64,000 nucleotides of DNA. It comes from an uncultured Clostridium sp. (lineage in GTDB: Bacteria > Bacillota > Clostridia > TANB77 > CAG-508). This document shows positions 1-23,692 of this stretch, in pieces; the stretch's first letter is position 1, and each line of letters starts with the position of its first letter. The notes beneath the pieces are model-generated. The model saw only the letters and a program-made list of their open reading frames with translations. It searched no databases and was not told the DNA's origin. Position numbers and translations under genes: made by a program. The DNA is taken from contig USEX01000002.1 in the NCBI GenBank assembly GCA_900553755.1, positions 16,339-80,338 of the forward strand, given 5' to 3'.

Positions 1-235
1 GTGGGACGAGAACCGTAGGTCGTATATATTGTTGGCTTTCCAATATGCACTAAATCCTGTTACTTGCTTACTTCTATATCTTTTTGTTTCTCCATCCATT
101 ACTGCTGCATTTCCGGTACTATTTGCGTAATTCCCCATGTTGCACTTCATGCATTTATTGGTGTATAGCCTTTTGGTATTATTGGATTATTTATATTTTT
201 ATAAAAGATTCTAATTTTGATTTTCATAAAAGTAT

Positions 236-305: not shown

Positions 306-2546
306 TTAGAAGTCCTTTTTGCTCCTTCTCTTTTTTTGTATAACCACTACTGTGATTACACCAGTGGCAGCAACGATAAGTGCAGTTGCCCAGTATACTA
401 CAGTATTTGTAGAGCCTGTTTTTGGCATATTATCGTTCTGTCCAGGAGTAGGAGTTGGAGAAGTCGGTTTCTCGCTCGGAACTGCTTCCGGAGTGGAAGT
501 AGGCTTCGGGGTCGGAGTGGACACTGTTGTAGGAGTCGCACTTGGAGTCGGAGTCGGCGTGGGTTCCTCACTCGGTTCAGGAGTGGGGGTTGGCGTCGGT
601 TCCGTGCTCGAGCTCGGCACAGGAGTAGGCGTTGGCGTTGGCTCAACACTCGGCGTAGGTGTCGGTGTAGGAGTAGGTTCCGGTGTAGCTGTGCTATTCG
701 GCACATCTATGATTGTTGTTTCCTTAGACTTTACTGTAAAAGTAATGTCATCAGAAGTAACATATCCACCAGGTGCCTTCACTTCTTTCAGAATGTAATC
801 TACATCTGTCAATAAATATTTAACAGTGAAGGAACCATTTTCAGTGACCAAGAGTGCAGCTGCACTCTCGTCAGTGGTAAAATACCCATTACCATTCTCA
901 TCAATGGCATAGTAGTACGTTACCTGCTGTTCTCCTTCATCTCCAAGCTCCATTTTATAATAATAGAGCTTAAAAGTGGCGGGATCGGTAATTAATTCAC
1001 CGGTCTCACTATCAACTTTATTGATGGTAACATCACCATCAACCTGTTCCATGATGATACTGTTGTACCATCCGAACTTGTAAAGCTGATAGCTGTTTGT
1101 GGTCCACGGACCATCAACGCCGAATACCATCGAGATAGCAATTTTACTTGCTTCCTCTTTGGTCAATCCAGCAGCAGTCGCTTCCGCAAAGTAATCATTT
1201 ACTTTGCTCCATGTTCCAGAAGTGTCCTCCATGTAGTCGCGGACACCCTGATCAAGCAAATGCCACTTGTCTCCGCTGTTAAGGAATTCCTGTCGAGTTT
1301 CTTCGTCACCAAACGCAAAACTCAACAATTCCTTGTAGAACAAATTGTAGCTGGCTTCACCAAGCTCCTTTTCATTCCACTTTACCTGCAGATACAATCT
1401 GCCGTTCCGTCCGGATTTAGTCACGGAATATTTTCCGATTAAATCTGGATACTTTGCCAGAAGATCAGCATATTGTTCTTCCGTTATGGAAAACTGATCA
1501 TCTGCCATGCCCCCCTGCATGTCGGCAACAGCCTCAGGATGTTCTTCAGCCAACTGGCTGAAGTTTGCATAGCTAGTACCAAGTTCATTGTTGTAATAAT
1601 TCAACAAATAATCGGTAAGAGCTGTTTCACCGGTGTAACCGGCGTCTGCCAAATAGTCAGCCATATTCAGAATATGGTTGAGCTTGACTTGTGTGCCGGA
1701 GAACACGTCAAACAACTTACACATTGGCGTAGACTTTGCAATCGCACCAAGAAACGCGATGGGAATTCTTTGCCCATCGAATCCTACGAAATCGCTCAGT
1801 GCTTCCTCATCAGACGTATTTTTGGTTTCCAACCTAAAGGAACCGTCTTGGTATCTATAGGTGTGACCATTGGAGGTGGTTATCTCTATATCCACCATCC
1901 CATAGTCTGAAGGTTGCACTAAATAGTGTGCATTCGGATCTCCCGTCTGGTCCTGATACCATTCATCTATCATGGTCAGAACTGTCGAGAAGTCCAAAAC
2001 AACATCTCCTTCAGCATCTTCTCCGATATCGTAGAAGATCTTGAACTTATCATCTTCCAGTTTGATGCTATAATTAACATCTACACCTGCCGACGTTTTG
2101 GGTTGATTAGCTGGATTAGCATTTTCTGCCTGTACAGCCACCATCAGAGATTCATCTGTAGCAGCATTTACTGTAATCAGATCTTCCTCAGACACGTACA
2201 ATTGTGTGTCTCCTTCGGATTTTTCAGGTTCTTGGGTTGCCCCAGCTTCCTGCTCAGTAGTAAAATCTTCCGATTCTGCCTCTGGTTCCTCAGTTGCCTC
2301 AGGAAAATCTACTTCTTCTTGAGCATTTTCCAGATTCTCATCTTGTTGCTCATTCTCAATAGCAGATGTTTCTTCAGCCTCCTCAGCTTCACCTTCCTTC
2401 AGAACTACTGTTTCTTCCGTACTTAAAGTTACACTTGTGGTGTCTTCAGGTACGGGACCTTCTGCATATGCTGTCGTAGCAGTTATTTGTACGACAAGCA
2501 TAGCAATTGCTAATAAAACAGCAATTCCCTTTTTCCGTCTTTTCAT
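306..2546 (-). CDS. Cell-wall-anchored surface protein (sortase substrate) with acidic N-terminal region, Cna-B/SpaA-like segment and Pro/Thr stalk
   Basis: 746-aa ORF with RBS AAAGGTGGAAAG before the ATG. Signal peptide MKRRKKGIAVLLAIAMLVVQITATTAYA. C-terminal fold segment ...LKEVKAPGGYVTSDDITFTV. PTPTPTP stalk. Sorting signal MPKTG, then a hydrophobic span and a KKRRSKK tail. Confidence 0.9.
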   Translation of the reverse strand: MKRRKKGIAVLLAIAMLVVQITATTAYAEGPVPEDTTSVTLSTEETVVLKEGEAEEAEETSAIENEQQDENLENAQEEVDFPEATEEPEAESEDFTTEQEAGATQEPEKSEGDTQLYVSEEDLITVNAATDESLMVAVQAENANPANQPKTSAGVDVNYSIKLEDDKFKIFYDIGEDAEGDVVLDFSTVLTMIDEWYQDQTGDPNAHYLVQPSDYGMVDIEITTSNGHTYRYQDGSFRLETKNTSDEEALSDFVGFDGQRIPIAFLGAIAKSTPMCKLFDVFSGTQVKLNHILNMADYLADAGYTGETALTDYLLNYYNNELGTSYANFSQLAEEHPEAVADMQGGMADDQFSITEEQYADLLAKYPDLIGKYSVTKSGRNGRLYLQVKWNEKELGEASYNLFYKELLSFAFGDEETRQEFLNSGDKWHLLDQGVRDYMEDTSGTWSKVNDYFAEATAAGLTKEEASKIAISMVFGVDGPWTTNSYQLYKFGWYNSIIMEQVDGDVTINKVDSETGELITDPATFKLYYYKMELGDEGEQQVTYYYAIDENGNGYFTTDESAAALLVTENGSFTVKYLLTDVDYILKEVKAPGGYVTSDDITFTVKSKETTIIDVPNSTATPEPTPTPTPTPSVEPTPTPTPVPSSSTEPTPTPTPEPSEEPTPTPTPSATPTTVSTPTPKPTSTPEAVPSEKPTSPTPTPGQNDNMPKTGSTNTVVYWATALIVAATGVITVVVIQKKRRSKKDF
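440..705 (-). repeat. Coding low-complexity Pro/Thr (PTPTPTP / EPTPTPTP) stalk repeat
   Basis: Translation reads ...TPEPTPTPTPTPSVEPTPTPTPVPSSSTEPTPTPTPEPSEEPTPTPTPSATP... This region also generates the spurious overlapping ORFs 261..815, 319..798 and 398..706. Confidence 0.8.
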
Positions 2547-8800: not shown

Positions 8801-9966
8801 TATTGATTTTGACCTGAATAATCTTTATCACCTATTACAAAAGTGAAATTTGTTTTACACTTTACTTTTGCAAATGTTGCTTTTACTTTTATTGCAGATG
8901 TATCTGCAATATCATCTTTATTTACTATAACATAAAATGTTTTTCCACTCTTTGGATAATTACATGTAGTAAATTTGTTTGATTTCTTTTCATATTCTAC
9001 CATATCTTCTTTAGAATTTGGGAAATATTGAACTGATTTTATGAAATCATTTCCCATTAATAAAGATATTTTATCTTTACTTACAATTGTTTTATTTGTA
9101 TCATTTTTATCTATTAATGATATACCTGATACACCATTAAATCTAAGCTTATAATTATTCACTGTATATTCTGGTTGTTCATATTGTAATTGGAATGGTC
9201 CTATTTTATATTGTGTATTTGAATAATCTTCTACCTTAATAGTTGATTCTACATTTTTAATTGTACCAGTTCCATATCTATTATAGTCGCCACTCATTAC
9301 AAATTGATTGTAAGTTTCTGCTTCTTTTTGCAATTGCTTAGCATCACGATATACAGTTGTTATATCATTTGAATACCAACCTAATGATTCCCATAATGCT
9401 GCTTGTTTCGTTAATGACCATGTTTCGCTATCTTTCATATCTTTTATAGTACTTGAAAGTATATATGATATTTCTTTAGGTTTTATATAGTTTTGTTTAT
9501 TTTCACTATAGTTATAGTTTGCAACTACTTCTCCATCACCAGAAAGTCTCTTTATTCTCCAAGGACCTATCTTTTCATCATCATTTTCAGTAAATATGTA
9601 GTTTACTTTTCTTTCTTGTTTTGTTCCTTTTAAATAAACAGAACTTGTATAATGTGTTCCACTATATTTTCCTTTGTAAGCGCAATACCATGATGCATCT
9701 CCTATATCGTTTGATATTGGAATTCCCGAATCTCCTTTTCTTATGCTCCAATTACCAGTATTACAGTCTTTTACGTAACTATCTTTCTTCGTTAATCTTA
9801 CATTATAATTACCTTTGCTATCTGATTTTATATTTAATTTTCCTGCTTCCCATGCTTCAGTTTTTATATTGTCTGCCAAAATGAGATTTTGGTTATATAT
9901 TATTGCAATTATTGCTGTTAATACTATTAATATAATAAAACTTACAAGGTTTTTTAACTTCTTCAT
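5812..9966 (-). CDS. Giant surface protein with SdrD-B/Cna-B-like and DUF11-like repeats (third gene of the adhesin cluster)
   Basis: 1384 aa, with a 16-nt gap and RBS GGGGAGGGAG after the upstream gene. N-terminal signal/anchor MKKLKNLVSFIILIVLTAIIAII. Two SdrD-B-like segments (GYVWEDVKSGKETSLNG..., GNIWIENRNNTVNG...GNYYLKFIY). C-terminus is LPPFGE, a hydrophobic span, then KKKVINKK. Confidence 0.85.
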   Translation of the reverse strand: MKKLKNLVSFIILIVLTAIIAIIYNQNLILADNIKTEAWEAGKLNIKSDSKGNYNVRLTKKDSYVKDCNTGNWSIRKGDSGIPISNDIGDASWYCAYKGKYSGTHYTSSVYLKGTKQERKVNYIFTENDDEKIGPWRIKRLSGDGEVVANYNYSENKQNYIKPKEISYILSSTIKDMKDSETWSLTKQAALWESLGWYSNDITTVYRDAKQLQKEAETYNQFVMSGDYNRYGTGTIKNVESTIKVEDYSNTQYKIGPFQLQYEQPEYTVNNYKLRFNGVSGISLIDKNDTNKTIVSKDKISLLMGNDFIKSVQYFPNSKEDMVEYEKKSNKFTTCNYPKSGKTFYVIVNKDDIADTSAIKVKATFAKVKCKTNFTFVIGDKDYSGQNQYQSGLIGKGERELIESPAYTDGIELTKFIKLSGYVWEDVKSGKETSLNGTKDGTNEAFLNGIKVVLHTSDGKTIEYVKNTESGSPIKYGQATKSTTTNSNGYYEFIVEQRNSGGYYVEFIYNGQDYQHTKYTQWTTTSSNAKKTSNATETESARDNLNKGLAEIGPNTGVSYSINTEKPSYISKYAISAYTGGYGNTKNIKTYNTTSSDINLGITKREVADLALRKDVYKAILNIKGYSQEYLYNKRDGLETDSKGNSYWDISLRKSDTNYYATSYTREVKKADYNYKGTNNLEARVVYKITIRNQSEGIAANVTELVDYFDDDYTYESAYIGDRNGKVITNLTSSSTSKYTHTTRISGYNKLYLKGLENSRIQPSGDLYVYVTFKVNTDSNGIKLDNSGTGKGNIAEIMGYKTYYANNISSPNAGSRITYTEYKAGDVAGRVDVDSNPGNVSSTDTKNFEDDTDRAPYIKFVLANEERRTTGNIWIENRNNTVNGADIGNGSYDNGEAGLSGVKVELWDADTNQKAKMWTNSGWQDAQVTSGNNGDYTLSGFVPGNYYLKFIYADGQTYKSTIYNPSATFDVNNPDELGRYVETTQKYSDARDIYNGKLTNNGKTLETLSTQYRQYVNNLLTEETNGKLKEYETQDKSMQAVTGLIGINIEKNPNDRNSDQRTYRMDGIDFGVVERPKTQLTLSQEVANVKVTLANGNTLFDASGKATNVLWQAKKYHQVSYDGNKLKTPVVSQNPQRIVLTMDEELMQGATINVKYALKVTNVGEIDYTGYNFYYKGNVANGSLVRTTIKGVVNYIGAALSDDAKATKNNLRFDASNSENNGWEQVNFDYLYKGEANPLVSEDLLTQSNGTYTGAVSEYSTILQNKMGETALTPQMASTGTHEANATLTLSQVMSAQNAADDLSYNTLAEIIKVSNDVGRRMAFSTVGNQNPNAKTAEIDADSTTVTVLPPFGETYIYYVLGLGLAAIIGLGVVLIKKKVINKK

Positions 9967-9982
9967 ATTTCTCCCTCCCCTC

Positions 9983-12900
9983 TTACATTTCTTTCTTTAG
10001 TACTTTAGTATTTATCTCATATATACCTATTCCAATTATTGCTATAACCGCAACTACTATTGCAATATTCATAATTATTTGACCTGTCTTTACAGATAAT
10101 ACTATGTTTGCAGTAGATAAGTCATTTTCTTCACGATTTTGATTTGCTGGAGTAGAGTTTACATCTGCCAATCCCAAATCATTATATGCTTCATAGATTT
10201 CAGCATCATTGCTTATTACTTTACCCATTGCATCACTGTTTAGTTTTTTAGTTAGTGTTAAAGTAATTTCTTTACTTTCACCTGGCTTTATTTCTTGATT
10301 TGCTAAGCTATTGTTGTAAATATTTCCATTTGTAGATTGATACCAATCTTTATTTATTTCTGAACTAAATTTCAAGTCTTCTGGTAAGTAGTCAACTACT
10401 TTTCTTGCATATCCTGAAACATCGCCATTATTTGTTACAATTATTTTGTATTCTATAACTATTGAAGTATTATCTATATCTTTAGCTGGAACTTCTATTT
10501 TTGCTATTTTCTTATTTTCATAATCATATGATTGAGCTGTTTTAGATGATGTTGATACAGTTATTTTGCTTACATATTTTTCTAAGCTTAAATCGAATGT
10601 TTGTGGATTACATAATCCTATATCAATATCTCTAATATTGCTATCTGTTACTATTATTGTATCTGTTATAGCAGCTTTTCTATTTTCTCCATCATACACT
10701 ATATCTGTGCTTACAACATCTGAGTTTACAGAGTTTGCAACTCCATTTTTTCTATAATCTGTTAATATATATTTTTCTGAATCATATAGGAATACTACTA
10801 TATATGTTCCTTGTTCTACATTGTTGAAACTATATTTTCCTTGTTCATCTGTAACAGTTATTTTTTCTTGATTAGTATTTTTATCTACTACAACAGTTCC
10901 ATCTAATTTGTTCATTAATATAACTTGAACATCTTTTAAAAGTGGTTCATCATCTGATCTCTTTCCATCCTTATTGTTATCTAACCAAGCAACACCTGTA
11001 ATTTTATATTTTCCATCCTCTGTTGGGTTGTCAGGATTGTCAGGGTTATTTGGATTATCTGGATCTGTTGAACTTCCATTATGTTCAGAGTTCACATATT
11101 CAATGTAGTTTACTATTGGTGTAGATTTTATTTCTTTATCATTATAATTTACTGTAATATAATTAGAAATTTCTTTTTCATCATCTGCTTTAGATTTTAG
11201 ATGAGGAATTGCAGTTATTTCTATTGTTATTGTAGTTCCAGGTCTTACTGAATCAATTGTCATATTTATAGTATTATCATTACTAGATATTGAAGATGTT
11301 GGTGTATCTTCTTCACTTGTTTGAATAATGATTTTTGTACCAATATACTCTAATTCTTCTGGCAATGTATCTGTTACATTTACTCTTCCTATGTTTCCAA
11401 TTCCATCTGATTTCAATACATATGTATACGTAAATTCTTTTCCTTCTTTTATATATTTAGAATCTTGGTCTATAGATGTAACTGTTAGGTTTGGTTCAGA
11501 AATTTTTAACTTTCTTTCATTTGAATAATGTGTATCTACTCCATCTGCTCTTGCAGATACTCTTGTTGAAATTTCTCCTGTAACATTTTCATTTAATGTA
11601 TATATTAGGTCTCTATACTCAAATTCTCCTACTGCTATATTACCTAAATTTAATATTATTTTATTATTCTCTATTGTATAATTATCTGAGTAGACTGTTA
11701 TTCCATCTTTTTGAGTATTTTCTGGTAATGATACTTCTATTACAACATTTTTTAATTCTTGTTTTGATATATTTTTTGCTGATACACTATATTTTACTTT
11801 TGTGCCTTTTTTAATTACATCTGGCATTTCTACCGTATTATTTAATACACGAATATCTCCTGTTTTTACTGTTAAATCAATCTTATTTGATTCTAATTGT
11901 GTTAATGTATCTGCTGTTATTGTTGCTATATTTGAAACAGTTTCTTCTGTTACGCTATCAGATGATAATTTTACTTGTACATAGTAAGTATTGTTTACTG
12001 TAGTGCCTGCTTTTAAATCTCCTATTGTAAATGTTATTGATTTACGTTCATTTGTGTAATCTTGATATGTAGGGTTGTAATCAACTATTTCTAATCCGCC
12101 TGGTGCTGTTACTGTAGCTTGTACATTTTTTGCATCTACTGTTCCTGCATTTTTTACATTTAAATCAAATCTTATATATTGGTATTCTCTTACTGTTGAA
12201 CCATTTTCTACATCTGCAGTTAATGTTCCTTCAATAACTGGACCTGTTCCTGTTGTTAATGTTATTTGTGTTGATTGTTTTTCTTCTGCCATTGTTCCTA
12301 CTGAAGATTCGTTATTGTAATTTACTTTGTAAGATAATTTATTTTGCTTATTATATGTTAAGTTTGCTGGTATTTTTGCAGAAGTTGTAAATTCTACTTG
12401 TGTTCCTTCTTCCATTTTATCTAATACTATTAGGTATGATTTAACACTGCTATAGTCTTGGATTGATTCTGTCCATCCGTTTGTTGTATCTGTTAAATCA
12501 TTTGTTGCGTTTATTTTTGTTGAATAATATACTTTGGCATTTTCATTTGATACTGTTATAGCTGAGTTTAATTTTATATCAAATGTTTCGTCTTTTGCTG
12601 TAGCTGGCATTCTACCTAATACTTTCATTCCAGAAATATTGTTGCTATAGTTATTTATTATTGTACCTTTATATGTAATATTCTTTTCTGCTGAATAAAT
12701 ATCTATTTTTGCAGTTTGCTCTTTTTCTTCTATTGTAGTTATTGTTTCGCTTCCTGAATATCCTGTTAAGCTGCTTACTGTTACTATTCCTGCAGGAGCT
12801 ACGAAACTAACTGGAATATCTTGTGGTTTTGTATTTGTTCCTTCTATTAACTCTTGTAAAGTATTTTCGTTTTTGTTTTCAACTCTTATTACATCATCTC

Positions 12901-17374: not shown

Positions 17375-18025
17375 CTACTTTATTTTAACTCCAAGTAAAT
17401 TTATCAAGTCAATTGCTTGGAGCTCACTAATGGTAGCTCCTTTTATATCGTCAGTTGATATTGCAATTCCTTCTATTAGATTATCTGACAAATCTACTCC
17501 TTTCAAGGAAGTTTTAAAAAATTGAGCTTGTGTTAAGTCTGACTCTTTAAACACTACATTTTTTAATTTATTTTCTTGAAAGATGCTATTTCGTAGAATT
17601 GATTTCTTGAATAATGTGCTTTTAATATTGCTCATGCTCCAATTTATGTACACCAAATTACATTCTTCAAACTGTGCATTACATATCACACTTTCGCTAA
17701 AATTGCATCCTGTGAATTTGCAATTTCTAAACCTGCATCTTATAAAGCTGCTGCTGTTAAAAGAAGTGTTTGAAAAATTACAATTTTCAAATTCCGTATC
17801 CATAAAGGTGTTATTTTCTAAATTACTATTTAGAATTTCTACGTTATTAAATTTTGCTATTTTTATTGTAATATTTGTTAATTCAATTGCTTCTTCCTTA
17901 TAGCTTTCTACTACTATATTTTCCATAGTATCTGTTTCTTTAAATTCATTTAATAAATCATCTACTTCTTTTATATTATTTTTCAACCTTCCTCCCAGTT
18001 CAAGCAAAATTATATCATTTTCCAA
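17375..18025 (-). CDS. Pentapeptide-repeat protein (Qnr/MfpA-like fold)
   Basis: 216 aa. From about residue 80 there are tandem A(D/N)LxX-type pentapeptides (CNFSNTSFNSSSFIRCRFRNCKFTGCNFSESVICNAQFEECNLVY...). The C-terminal tail is LIEGIAISTDDIKGATISELQAIDLINLLGVKIK. Confidence 0.8.
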   Translation of the reverse strand: MENDIILLELGGRLKNNIKEVDDLLNEFKETDTMENIVVESYKEEAIELTNITIKIAKFNNVEILNSNLENNTFMDTEFENCNFSNTSFNSSSFIRCRFRNCKFTGCNFSESVICNAQFEECNLVYINWSMSNIKSTLFKKSILRNSIFQENKLKNVVFKESDLTQAQFFKTSLKGVDLSDNLIEGIAISTDDIKGATISELQAIDLINLLGVKIK

Positions 18026-18131
18026 ATAGTGTTTTCAGTATTTTCCATTAATTATTTCTTATATTAGTATGCTTATATCTCCTTCCTAATTTATATCATA
18101 CTTTCCTATCTTTCTCAATAAAATTTAAAAC

Positions 18132-18155
18132 AAAAAAGACAGCATTTCTGCTGCC
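18132..18155 (-). terminator. Rho-independent terminator of the 546-aa/66-aa/35-aa operon
   Basis: Minus strand reads GGCAGCA-GAAA-TGCTGTC followed by TTTTTTG, 8 nt after the small-ORF stop at 18163. Confidence 0.7.
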
Positions 18156-18162
18156 TCCTATT

Positions 18163-18270
18163 CTAGTTTATAGCTACTCCGTTTACATATAGTTTATATC
18201 CATTAAAGTCTATGTTGCTGTATGTTGCGTCTGCAATTTTTGCTTCATCCTCTATAATTAAAACTCTCAT
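18163..18270 (-). CDS. Small ORF (35 aa), hypothetical
   Basis: Hand translation gives MRVLIIEDEAKIADATYSNIDFNGYKLYVNGVAIN. RBS AGGA lies 7 nt upstream. The ORF sits 17 nt after the 66-aa ORF and directly before the terminator. It is below the ORF-track cutoff. Confidence 0.4.
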   Translation of the reverse strand: MRVLIIEDEAKIADATYSNIDFNGYKLYVNGVAIN

Positions 18271-18287
18271 ATTTTTCATCCTATATA

Positions 18288-18488
18288 TTAACGTTTTAAC
18301 TTTATAATTCTCTTTTTGTGTTCTTGTAATTTATTATTATACTTAGAAATGTTATCCTCTAAAAATTTTATTTGTTCTTTATATAAAAGTAATAAGCCTT
18401 CCTTTTCCATTTCTGACATTTCTTCTTCTTTTATTTGCCCCATCTCATATTTTTTCTGCAATAATTTAATCTTTGCTTTATTCATCAT
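18288..18488 (-). CDS. Small coiled-coil protein, hypothetical
   Basis: 66 aa, K/E-rich. Its start ATGATG overlaps the stop of the upstream 546-aa gene (ATGATGAATAA), which suggests translational coupling. Confidence 0.55.
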   Translation of the reverse strand: MMNKAKIKLLQKKYEMGQIKEEEMSEMEKEGLLLLYKEQIKFLEDNISKYNNKLQEHKKRIIKLKR

Positions 18489-20118
18489 ATTCCCTTTCAG
18501 ACTGTTCTGCTATCTCTCCCGGCACAACATCTTTATAAAATGCTTCTTTGCTTTCTCTTAATAATCTTTCATATTCTTTTTCTAACTCTTCTGCTTGTCT
18601 ATTTTTCTCTCTCATTTTTTCCAGCTTATCTAATAATTCCTTTTTTCTATTTTTTGCAGTCTCTAATTCTGTTTGTTGCTTCTTTGGGGGATTTTTTTCT
18701 TGCTGCTTTTGAGACAAAGTTATTTGATATTTCTCTAATACTTTTTTTAGTTCTTCATAGCTTCTAGCACCAAATCCATTTATTTGTTTTAATTCTTTTT
18801 CTGTTAAACTTTGTATATCTCCCAATGTATCTATCCCCGCTCTTTTCAAGCGATTAAAACATCCTACAGATAAATTGATTTCTTCTATTGGCAATGATAT
18901 TTTTCTTCTTATATTGTCTTCTTTTATCTTTCTTTGCTTTATAGCATCTTTTAGGTTCTTTAAGAAATTCATTTCTCCTAAAAGTTTACAATCTTCTTTT
19001 AAAAGCTCTTTTCTTATGTCTTTAAAAAGTAATAAATTACTATTATTTATGTCTTGCTCTATTTGTTCCAATAAAATTTTCTCTTCAGCACTTACCAAAG
19101 AATTCGCTTTCATTTGTTCTAAATCATATTCTACTTCTTTTTCTATGGCTTCTTGTCTAATCTTTTTTAGTGCTGATTTTTCCAATACTCTTATTCCTTC
19201 TGGAGAAATATTAAGTTCAGTTCCAATAGCTCTTAGACTAGTTTGCATATCTTCATTCATAAGCCCAAACCTTCTAAAAATTACATATTTACTTTTTTCT
19301 GGTAATGTTTCCATTGCTTCTTCTAATTTTTTACTTGAATAAATTCTTAGCTTAGTATCCGAATCATCTATGTCAAAAATCTTTTGATATAACTGATTAT
19401 ATTTCTCACTCTTAGGGCTTCCATCCATATCTAATACATTCTTAACTAATCCTCTTCCTAATATCTCATCACACTCACTTAGCTGGCTTTTTCTATACAA
19501 GTCCACAAATGTATTCATATTTTTATATTTTTCTATAATATATGAAATTATTTTTTCATTTTCTCCACATTTTCTTGCAATCCATTTTATTGCCTTAGAC
19601 ATACCAAAAACACCACCAATATTAGCTTCTCTACATTTTATTATCTGGTCTTCCTTAAGCTTTCCCTTTGACATTGCGTTTCTTACATCATTGTAATACT
19701 TCTTCATTTTCTCATATTCTTCACATAGGCTTATATATTCTTCTTCACTTGAAGCTATTCCTCTTAATGCTTCGTTTTGCTTTTTACCTGTTGACACATG
19801 CAACATTGGATATCTCTTTTGCCACTTTACTATTTCTTCTACTTTTTCAGCAACTGTAGGTCCTACTTGCCTTTCAAGTATCCCCATACTCTTTAATTTT
19901 TCTAATTGTTCTTCTGTAGGGTTTAATGATATTTTATTTTTTCTTGTTCCTTTCTGCAAAGCATTAATTTCACTTCTAATTCCTATTGCCCAAACACCTA
20001 CTGGATATCCTTCAAAAACTGAAGCTCCATTTAATTTTTCTCCTGTATTTAAATATTGCTCAAATAGTTCAATCTTACGTTCTAAGCTAACTGCTTTTTT
20101 TCTTTTTCTATTTTCCAT
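18478..20118 (-). CDS. Multidomain protein: helicase-associated (HA)-like repeats + sigma-70 region-4-like HTH + RNA polymerase alpha-CTD-like helix-hairpin-helix + acidic coiled-coil tail
   Basis: 546 aa. HA-like segment FEQYLNTGEKLNGASVFEGYPVGVWAIGIRSE...LEKLKSMGI. Sigma r4.2-like segment LPEKSKYVIFRRFGLMNEDMQTSLRAIGTELNISPEGIRVLEKSALKKIR. Alpha-CTD-like segment PIEEINLSVGCFNRLKRAGIDTLGDIQSLTEKELKQINGFGARSYEELKKVLEKYQI. Confidence 0.75.
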   Translation of the reverse strand: MENRKRKKAVSLERKIELFEQYLNTGEKLNGASVFEGYPVGVWAIGIRSEINALQKGTRKNKISLNPTEEQLEKLKSMGILERQVGPTVAEKVEEIVKWQKRYPMLHVSTGKKQNEALRGIASSEEEYISLCEEYEKMKKYYNDVRNAMSKGKLKEDQIIKCREANIGGVFGMSKAIKWIARKCGENEKIISYIIEKYKNMNTFVDLYRKSQLSECDEILGRGLVKNVLDMDGSPKSEKYNQLYQKIFDIDDSDTKLRIYSSKKLEEAMETLPEKSKYVIFRRFGLMNEDMQTSLRAIGTELNISPEGIRVLEKSALKKIRQEAIEKEVEYDLEQMKANSLVSAEEKILLEQIEQDINNSNLLLFKDIRKELLKEDCKLLGEMNFLKNLKDAIKQRKIKEDNIRRKISLPIEEINLSVGCFNRLKRAGIDTLGDIQSLTEKELKQINGFGARSYEELKKVLEKYQITLSQKQQEKNPPKKQQTELETAKNRKKELLDKLEKMREKNRQAEELEKEYERLLRESKEAFYKDVVPGEIAEQSEREYDE

Positions 20119-20211: not shown

Positions 20212-20287
20212 TGGTTGCGGGGGTAAGATTCGAACTTACGACCTTTGGGTTATGAGCCCAACGAGCTGCCAGCTGCTCCACCCCGCG
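20212..20287 (-). tRNA. tRNA-Met, initiator type (anticodon CAT)
   Basis: Minus strand reads CGCGGGGTGGAGCAGCTGGCAGCTCGTTGGGCTCATAACCCAAAGGTCGTAAGTTCGAATCTTACCCCCGCAACCA. C1/A72 are unpaired, three G-C pairs close the anticodon stem, and CCA is encoded. Confidence 0.93.
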
Positions 20288-23576: not shown

Positions 23577-23692
23577 ATGTTTTATAGCACTTAGTATATC
23601 AAAATATATTATAAAGCGCAATATATAAACATAAAAAATATGAATAAGGTTTCAAAAACATAGTGTAAACTAATCAAAAAATATTGGCATAT

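Follow-up and report, generated by a model that had tools for sequence, protein, structure and literature searches.

Promoter-reading modules of RNA polymerase on a helicase-less protein: a two-gene operon of an unnamed modular family from gut Clostridia

A stretch of 64,000 nucleotides (nt) from an uncultured Clostridium sp. (GenBank assembly GCA_900553755.1, contig USEX01000002.1, positions 16,339 to 80,338; the whole stretch is hereafter referred to as the window) carries an operon whose conserved unit consists of two genes: one encodes a protein of 546 amino acids (aa), and the other encodes a small coiled-coil partner. The 546-aa protein belongs to an unnamed modular family found in gut Clostridia and lacks the helicase that some members carry. 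Its gene (18478..20118, minus strand) specifies, in this order, two helicase-associated (HA) repeats, HA1 and HA2, a middle region (MID), region 4 of a sigma-70 factor (r4), a structured linker, the C-terminal domain of the RNA polymerase alpha subunit (alpha-CTD) and a coiled-coil tail. The modules and their order are clearly identified, a helicase is fused to the same region in relatives, the partner gene recurs beside family members, and both genes of the operon are under purifying selection. Sigma r4 and the alpha-CTD are the two parts of RNA polymerase (RNAP) that read promoter-upstream DNA and receive activator signals; here, both promoter-reading modules have been copied onto one non-polymerase protein. 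As a whole, these features are best explained, with a probability that we put at about one half, by a helicase-less, multi-headed DNA-binding arm that would be aimed at promoter-like, AT-rich DNA.

Module composition of the 546-aa protein

The r4 module covers aa 263-326 (19141..19332; this and all other features of the operon lie on the minus strand). Pfam Sigma70_r4 (PF04545) matches aa 268-322 with an E value of 9e-8 and 31.9 bits against a cut-off of 24.1, and the NCBIfam model RpoD_Cterm matches with E 1e-9. Among solved structures, the segment matches r4 of Thermotoga maritima RpoD (1tty_A, E 1.6e-4), and the predicted r4 superposes on domain 4 of Staphylococcus aureus sigmaA (4g6d_A) with a template modelling (TM) score of 0.79. 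The r4 segment recognized in the original prediction, which was made from the sequence alone, is therefore borne out by agreeing profiles and structures. The same applies to the alpha-CTD, which had been placed about 100 aa beyond r4: the module covers aa 398-467 (18718..18927), Pfam RNA_pol_A_CTD (PF03118) matches aa 400-463 (E 1.4e-16, 60.4 bits against a cut-off of 23.8), the segment matches the solved alpha-CTD of Bacillus subtilis (3gfk_B, E 1.4e-9), and the predicted domain superposes on another (1z3e_B) with TM 0.95-0.96 and a root-mean-square deviation (rmsd) of 0.6-0.7 Å.

The protein is not, however, a subunit of RNAP. The NCBIfam rpoA equivalog models give E ~1e-15 and ~55 bits against cut-offs of 228-523; since the rpoA and RpoD_Cterm scores lie far under the cut-offs set for whole proteins, the protein is not RpoA, and it is not a sigma factor either. 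Sigma region 2 (Sigma70_r2) was found neither by Pfam at E ≤ 1 nor by NCBIfam or the family profile, and Pfam found no N-terminal domain of RpoA (RNA_pol_A_bac, RNA_pol_L) in the 546 aa. The earlier claim that r4 and the alpha-CTD share one non-RNAP polypeptide agrees with both of these results.

The HA domain is a small helical domain. The two HA-like repeats were the weakest item among the modules listed earlier, and they are supported through profile-profile comparison only. HA1 covers aa 8-86 (19861..20097), and HA2, a divergent HA-like repeat with an inserted long helix, covers aa 88-172 (19603..19857). Pfam HA gives no match in the 546-aa query even at E ≤ 1, and recurrent sub-threshold matches are seen in homologs (E 0.004-0.02). 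A relative, P0138, has the same helicase type as the helicase-bearing members of the family together with six repeats certified as HA by Pfam (E 3.8e-37). When the family profile of HA1 (86 sequences, P0138 left out) was compared with the HA repeats of P0138, hhalign gave 98.9% (E 1.4e-17). The corresponding result for HA2 was weaker (75%, E 2.4e-5), and HA2 against HA1 gave 61% (E 8e-5). It was also found that HA2 is the home of the most conserved motifs of the family: TIDEKI, W..KYP and YY.Y..R..GKL..EQ..KCKEGN.

MID (aa 173-262; 19333..19602) is a family-specific helical region, the C-terminal end of which carries the conserved motifs D.D...Y and YSS. Between r4 and the alpha-CTD lies a structured helical linker (aa 327-397; 18928..19140). 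Neither MID nor the linker matches any known family, and a profile of aa 88-262 built from 20 sequences has no significant match in PDB sequences or Pfam. An AlphaFold model from a 29-sequence alignment has a mean predicted local distance difference test (pLDDT) score of 84.3 and a predicted TM score of 0.59; it was used in place of an earlier model from a 5-sequence alignment, in which the pLDDT of r4 was below 50. The scores of the individual regions are 68-89 per 10-residue block for HA1 (mostly 82-89), about 88-94 for MID and 82-95 for the linker, so that r4 is flanked by confidently predicted MID and linker helices. A cryptic sigma region 2 or 3 within HA2 and MID was also considered and rejected: the Foldseek alignments to sigmaA, which extend over ~340 columns, have TM ~0.2, and the aa 88-262 profile is free of sigma matches. 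In our view, these long alignments, which run along whole sigmaA chains, reflect helical noise with r4 as the anchor.

The C-terminal tail (aa 468-546; 18478..18717) is composed of a disordered Lys/Gln-rich stretch, a long charged heptad helix and an acidic end. The helix (aa 481-529) is confidently predicted and shows heptad periodicity, in keeping with the coiled coil described before. The word acidic, however, fits only the last 17 residues (net charge −6), while the helix itself is charge-balanced.

A recurrent family with and without a helicase

The architecture was followed by an exhaustive profile search against 1.84 billion representatives, with clusters at 50% identity. The family comprises 163 clusters at E ≤ 1e-30. 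A word-indexed homolog search under-reports it badly, returning 5-8 matches. Hidden Markov models of the domains were made from the family and scored on the top 150 representatives: HA occurs in 132 of them, r4 in 117 and the alpha-CTD in 109; r4 and the alpha-CTD occur together in 97, and all three in 82. The number of alpha-CTD copies per protein ranges from 0 to 5. An N-terminal ResIII/Helicase_C helicase is present in 17 representatives, while 71 proteins begin directly at HA1 and 44 at HA2 (115 of the 150 together). The layout of the family is thus an optional superfamily 2 (SF2) helicase of the ResIII type, followed by HA-HA-MID-r4, zero to five alpha-CTDs and a coiled-coil tail, and the helicase-less forms are the majority. 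The protein of the window holds HA1, HA2, MID, r4 and the alpha-CTD, all five in collinear order.

In the relatives that have it, the ResIII/Helicase_C SF2 module sits directly before the HA-HA-MID-r4-alpha-CTD region, and among solved structures it is nearest to SauUSI (7clg_A, E 1.4e-14) and RadD (E 2.4e-5). The helicase connection guessed at in the original prediction, which spoke of a helicase-type partner, thereby receives strong support of the 'Rosetta-stone' kind. An SF2 helicase core (ResIII/DEAD plus Helicase_C) was found neither in the 546-aa protein nor elsewhere in the 64-kb window, and the window contains no second family member. Two complementary paralogs lie ~18 kb apart on contig CANRED010000004.1 (L003/L008 and L011) of one metagenome-assembled genome (MAG): one is helicase-HA-HA-MID-r4 without an alpha-CTD, and the other is HA2-MID-r4 with four alpha-CTDs and without helicase or HA1. 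The latter is split over two overlapping open reading frames (ORFs), possibly by a frameshift.

None of the sequence databases consulted has a name for any family member, and no description of the HA-r4-alpha-CTD combination was found in the full-text literature. The remark that no characterised protein has this layout accordingly stands, and the case is one of familiar modules combined in a recurrent but undescribed layout. Far from being unique to the window, this layout is seen in at least ~160 sequence clusters. As for the question raised with the prediction, whether the layout would prove to be a common and already named family, it is common at this number of clusters, but no source names any member.

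Concerning the hosts, a pattern-based scan of 185,579 species-representative genomes yielded six loci, all in MAGs of uncultured Clostridia from human (Hadza) or rabbit gut, and the metagenome loci found are of the same kind. To our knowledge, the family has no cultured host. The 90% cluster of the 546-aa protein has 178 members; of the 15 that are listed, 14 have the full length of 546 aa.

The small partner gene and the extent of the operon

The partner gene (18288..18488) encodes 66 aa from its first ATG and 65 aa from the second. Most members of its cluster are 65 aa long, and the second ATG is therefore regarded as the conserved start. The stop codon of the 546-aa gene overlaps the start of the 66-aa ORF (GAATATGATGAATAAAG), as had been noticed before, and an AGGAG ribosome-binding site lies 8 nt 5′ of the 546-aa gene, which is predicted to be translationally coupled to the conserved small gene. 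Homologs of the partner adjoin family members in L001, L006, L007, L011, L015, L016 and L018, which together with the window makes eight distinct loci. Pairwise BLASTP values among the partner ORFs of distinct loci go down to 1e-11, and the two subgroups into which they fall are joined by hhalign at 90.7%. The small partner is also repeatedly called as a gene in public assemblies. Its long forms (115-127 aa) start with a basic amphipathic motif, IFNKI..FFKNIF, which the 65/66-aa form of the window does not have. The small ORF has no Pfam match to SHOCT at E ≤ 1, and a SHOCT-like motif in it is not claimed. A 148-aa ORF after P0005 is not supported as a partner homolog (hhalign below 4%).

Two loci show further proteins beside the partner. 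Acidic coiled-coil proteins stand directly before the partner ORF in L016 (9450-10541, 363 aa) and L018 (3453-5498, 681 aa), and this pair is located 3′ of the helicase-fused gene in L016 and 5′ of it in L018. In L018, a 362-aa transglutaminase-core-like protein (8948-10036) follows the helicase-fused gene; an ORF of ~360 aa follows in both L016 and L018. The large acidic coiled-coil and transglutaminase-core-like proteins of these loci could be additional lineage-specific partners.

The operon had been described as consisting of three genes, and this part of the description does not hold. The third ORF, a mini-ORF at 18163..18279, encodes 38 aa from its first ATG and 35 aa from the ATG at 18270 that is conserved in relatives. 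The length of 35 aa reported earlier is the latter, and the ORFs otherwise lie where they had been placed. The mini-ORF is contained in a segment of ~115 nt, which the window shares with L012 and L013 and which L006 and L014 lack; the ORF is intact in all three of the former, with two amino-acid changes in L013. Because the mini-ORF is found in only three close strains and is missing from two, the conserved unit is taken to be two genes and not three. Its sequence (MRVLIIEDEAKIAD...) is similar to the N-terminal ~30 residues of the receiver domain of response regulators, and the matches to NCBIfam response-regulator models are weak (E 0.014-0.1); a complete receiver domain has about 115 aa, of which only these N-terminal residues are alike. 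The mini-ORF is probably a remnant outside the conserved unit. At a distant locus, L010, the helicase-fused homolog has a complete regulator of the OmpR type behind it.

Purifying selection and the 3′ part of the operon

The window was compared with the 96%-identical MAG locus L006. The ratio of nonsynonymous to synonymous substitution rates (dN/dS) is 0.33 for the 546-aa gene and 0.48 for the small gene, and an intact 546-aa frame is also present in five strain loci. The dS values rise toward the 3′ end: they are 0.03-0.04 from HA to the linker, reach 0.13 in the alpha-CTD and are highest, at 0.29, in the tail and small ORF. Helix 1 of the alpha-CTD holds a cluster of seven amino-acid differences between the window and L006 (aa 412-423). 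Since dS climbs along with dN in this 3′ part, the pattern is more likely to reflect a recombination tract than positive selection, and it suggests that this tract reaches in from the variable junction described below (window 18288-19000 relative to L006).

DNA-contacting residues and the favoured explanation

Sigma r4 recognizes the −35 element and also docks on the beta flap, and the alpha-CTD binds AT-rich UP elements via R265, N268, G296, K298 and S299. The contact positions of both domains are given here in the Escherichia coli numbering. Among the alpha-CTD copies of the family, the canonical residue is found at R265 in 80%, at G296 in 85%, at N268 in 69% and at K298 in 59%, with Arg at the last position in a further 13 of 86 copies. 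Among the r4 copies, R586 is canonical in 64%, R588 in 59% and Q589 in 65%. The contacts are thus kept in most family members, which argues that DNA binding by the family is under selection. The copy in the window is a different case: in its alpha-CTD, R265 is replaced by Gly and K298 by Arg, while N268, G296 and S299 are kept, and the recognition helix of its r4 has R584P, R586G and Q589V, while E585 and R588 are kept.

According to the passage of PMC12191111 that cites Mills et al. (2013), the HA domain is reported to bind DNA. The HA repeats, the helix-turn-helix (HTH) of r4 and the helix-hairpin-helix (HhH) of the alpha-CTD, each of them a module of the DNA-binding kind, would together form the multi-headed DNA-binding arm, and because r4 and the alpha-CTD are the parts of RNAP that read −35 and AT-rich UP elements, the arm would most likely be directed to promoter-like, AT-rich DNA. 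In the helicase-fused members, it would serve to anchor or target the motor, an SF2 DNA translocase that has SauUSI and RadD as relatives. The helicase-less members, including the protein of the window, would act as stand-alone DNA-binding adaptors or regulators; they probably oligomerise via the tail and the small partner, and they may cooperate or compete with helicase-bearing paralogs.

Several points weigh against this explanation. The first concerns the window copy itself: without R265, R584, R586 and Q589, DNA binding by its r4 and alpha-CTD may be weak or of a different kind, and the lost contacts would weaken any simple picture in which the protein binds a −35 element plus an UP element as RNAP does. 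Since several base-contacting residues are replaced there, the main contacts of this copy may be those of HA/MID and the backbone, or contacts with other proteins. Another is that r4 and the alpha-CTD also make protein-protein contacts within RNAP, so that DNA binding is not the sole possible role. In addition, the window holds no helicase homolog. Moreover, the function of the family is read from domain identity and fusions. The last point is one of distribution: the restriction to Clostridia rests on pattern-based scans, which see closer relatives only.

Alternative explanations

We rank four alternatives by their support, in the order of RNAP docking, an integrated decoy, a decaying remnant and an odd sigma factor. 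The first, which is possible but clearly less probable than the DNA-binding arm, is that the modules tether the protein to RNAP and not to DNA: r4 would bind the beta-flap tip, and the alpha-CTD would contact activators or sigma. The helicase-fused forms would then be RNAP-associated remodelers in the manner of RapA or HelD; those without a helicase would be competitors or regulators of sigma or alpha contacts. That both modules are nearest to genuine RNAP parts and not to generic HTH or HhH domains (RpoD_Cterm E 1e-9, rpoA E ~1e-15, 'RKLRHP'-like ends in relatives) is consistent with such docking, as is the fact that the window copy lacks several DNA contacts yet is under purifying selection. 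However, most family members keep the DNA contacts, which would be needless for pure protein docking, and arrays of up to five alpha-CTDs better fit multivalent DNA binding. Foldseek also aligns the model along whole sigmaA chains with a probability of 0.98, but these long alignments have TM ~0.2, and in aa 88-262 neither sigma2 nor sigma3 is seen by the profiles.

The second alternative, an immune sensor with an integrated decoy, is unlikely. Phage factors that attack RNAP surfaces include the anti-sigma factors AsiA and ORF67 and modifiers of the alpha-CTD. Spare copies of r4 and the alpha-CTD might bait such phage proteins, which hijack or inactivate the host RNAP, and capture might be coupled via the coiled-coil partner and a helicase (in cis or on a paralog) to an immune or transcription-rescue response. 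Defence proteins do share the modules, the alpha-CTD segment matching PglW (E 7e-6) and r4 matching MzaA (E 1e-8); the helicase of relatives resembles the type IV restriction enzyme SauUSI; and the structural matches include the complex of phage G1 ORF67 with sigmaA domain 4. The widely varying copy number of the alpha-CTD, the cluster of differences at alpha-CTD helix 1 between near-identical strains, and the hypervariable region bordering the operon, where defence-like genes lie in L006, would also suit a sensor. On the other side, no nuclease or other effector domain is apparent in the protein or among the neighbours in the loci examined, and PADLOC gave no system-level match but single-domain ones only (PglW, MzaA, mREase_IV). 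The neighbourhoods of the other loci are mostly housekeeping and are not defence islands. In the alpha-CTD region dS and dN rise together, which favours recombination over positive selection, and the sensor itself is argued from analogy.

It is very unlikely that the protein is a decaying remnant, namely the C-terminal half of a helicase gene that has lost its motor and is drifting. This would explain the canonical contact residues missing from the window copy, and the helicase does stand directly upstream of the same region in relatives. However, dN/dS is 0.33, the frame is intact in 14 of the 15 listed cluster members and in five strain loci, and the helicase-less forms are the majority (115 of 150). 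The good ribosome-binding site, the predicted translational coupling to a conserved partner and the confident AlphaFold model (pLDDT 84) also speak against decay. Finally, an unorthodox alternative sigma factor that steers RNAP to promoters is effectively refuted: despite the region 4 match, the sigmaA matches by Foldseek and an alignment of TIGR02937 (sigma70-ECF) to aa 192-323 (E 6e-9, below its cut-off), region 2 is not detected by Pfam, NCBIfam or the family profile, which leaves no core binding and no −10 recognition, and neither HA repeats nor fusions to a helicase are features of sigma factors.

A less exotic possibility beside these is that the family might work as an SF2 translocase anchored at promoters, which would clear away or remodel the complexes on strong promoters of the UP-element type.

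Comparison with known systems

The HA-domain SF2 helicases (PF03457 plus ResIII/Helicase_C) resemble the family in that HA follows a ResIII-type helicase in 17 of the 150 members; P0138 is a classical helicase with six HA repeats, to which HA1 of the window protein is homologous. The window protein differs from them in lacking the helicase core, and MID, sigma r4 and the alpha-CTD after HA were not found described for them. One HA-domain helicase, BVU_0683 of Bacteroides vulgatus, reportedly has a nuclear magnetic resonance structure of its HA domain; we know of no functional characterisation of the HA helicases.

With RpoA (PF03118), the family shares the alpha-CTD fold (TM 0.96 and rmsd 0.6 Å to that of B. 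subtilis), and most copies keep the DNA-binding determinant. It differs in that the N-terminal assembly domain is missing and 0-5 alpha-CTD copies are present, and Gly stands in place of R265 in the window copy. With the sigma-70 factors (PF04545), the HTH of regions 4.1-4.2 matches that of primary sigma factors, and the recognition helix is canonical in most family copies. The window protein, in contrast, lacks regions 1-3, and its r4 carries R584P, R586G and Q589V. The helicase cores of SauUSI and RadD are the nearest solved relatives of the helicase in the fused members, a likeness that concerns these relatives and not the window protein; unlike SauUSI, the family has no PLD nuclease or target-recognition domain.

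Reuse of the modules outside RNAP is also seen in PglW (an alpha-CTD-like segment), MzaA (an r4-like C-terminus) and stand-alone alpha-CTD or r4 proteins of phages. The likeness is one of single domains, and none of these joins both modules with HA repeats and a helicase. RapA and HelD bind RNAP through unrelated domains. To them the family bears a functional analogy only, as ATPases or helicases directed at the transcription machinery, and no sequence relationship was detected.

Taken against these systems, the interpretation given with the original prediction is upheld in that both modules stand on a non-RNAP protein with a link to a helicase and without a characterised homolog; its third gene is not, and the roles of decoy, competitor or scaffold put forward there are hypothetical. 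The alpha-CTD arrays of up to five copies, the frequent fusion to an SF2 helicase and the small partner, which is almost always present, suggest an undescribed route by which a motor or regulator might reach promoter-like DNA or the transcription machinery. The family is abundant in gut metagenomes and unnamed, and it is a clear target for biochemistry. The impact is limited in that each of the modules is familiar by itself, the function is wholly inferred, and the DNA-reading residues of the window copy are degenerate.

Transcription signals and genomic context

Directly upstream of the operon lies an initiator-type tRNA-Met gene (20212..20287, minus strand), which has a perfect consensus promoter, TTGACA-18-TATAAT, at 20332-20303. 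An AT-rich hairpin with a T-run, spotted by eye, is found at 20203-20168 between the tRNA gene and the operon. No convincing promoter of its own was found for the operon, and transcription by read-through from the tRNA-Met promoter is therefore possible. At the other end, the operon is closed by an intrinsic terminator-like hairpin with a T-run at 18159-18134 (18134..18159, minus strand), in agreement with the terminator seen earlier after the mini-ORF. L006 keeps the same terminator, there directly 3′ of the small ORF.

An integrative island at the tRNA-Met gene was rejected: no att-like repeat of the tRNA occurs within the 64-kb window, and in L006 the operon is syntenic with the tRNA gene and comEA. 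A phage or plasmid origin was likewise rejected. No family member was found among the INPHARED phages and PLSDB plasmids, where tblastn gives alpha-CTD-level matches only, two scans of IMG/VR gave no relatives, and an att-like tRNA repeat is absent here as well. Across the loci, the neighbours are ordinary chromosomal genes (dnaE, pyk, rpmF, murA, topA-like, tuf), and the only one that recurs is the small coiled-coil ORF. At the P0002 locus, PolA, a 5′-3′ exonuclease, an SLT protein and a methyltransferase lie nearby, a context that does not recur.

Right after the shared terminator, the genomes diverge completely, forming a hypervariable junction (window ~17989-18130 and downstream). Beyond it, the window encodes a pentapeptide-repeat protein, a membrane protein, a VWA protein and a 1640-aa surface protein. 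L006 (11850-21596) and L012 have NUDIX there, followed in L006 by an ITPase, a 913-aa protein, a UvrD-like protein of 764 aa and an HsdS-like protein, and L013 shows a third gene arrangement.

Some minor observations were made farther from the operon. Near the start of the window, where the GC content is 0.44 against about 0.27, a gene at 306-2546 (minus strand) encodes a surface protein of 746 aa, which has a long stalk rich in Pro and Thr (PTPTPTP) and an LPXTG-like anchor, MPKTG. L006 carries a 2.1-kb insertion (L006 4366-6482, noted together with window 16-142 and 23637-23649) between cvpA-like and lytR-like genes, which encodes a 483-aa prepilin-like protein, and a 127-nt piece of this insertion is 88% identical to window 16-142.

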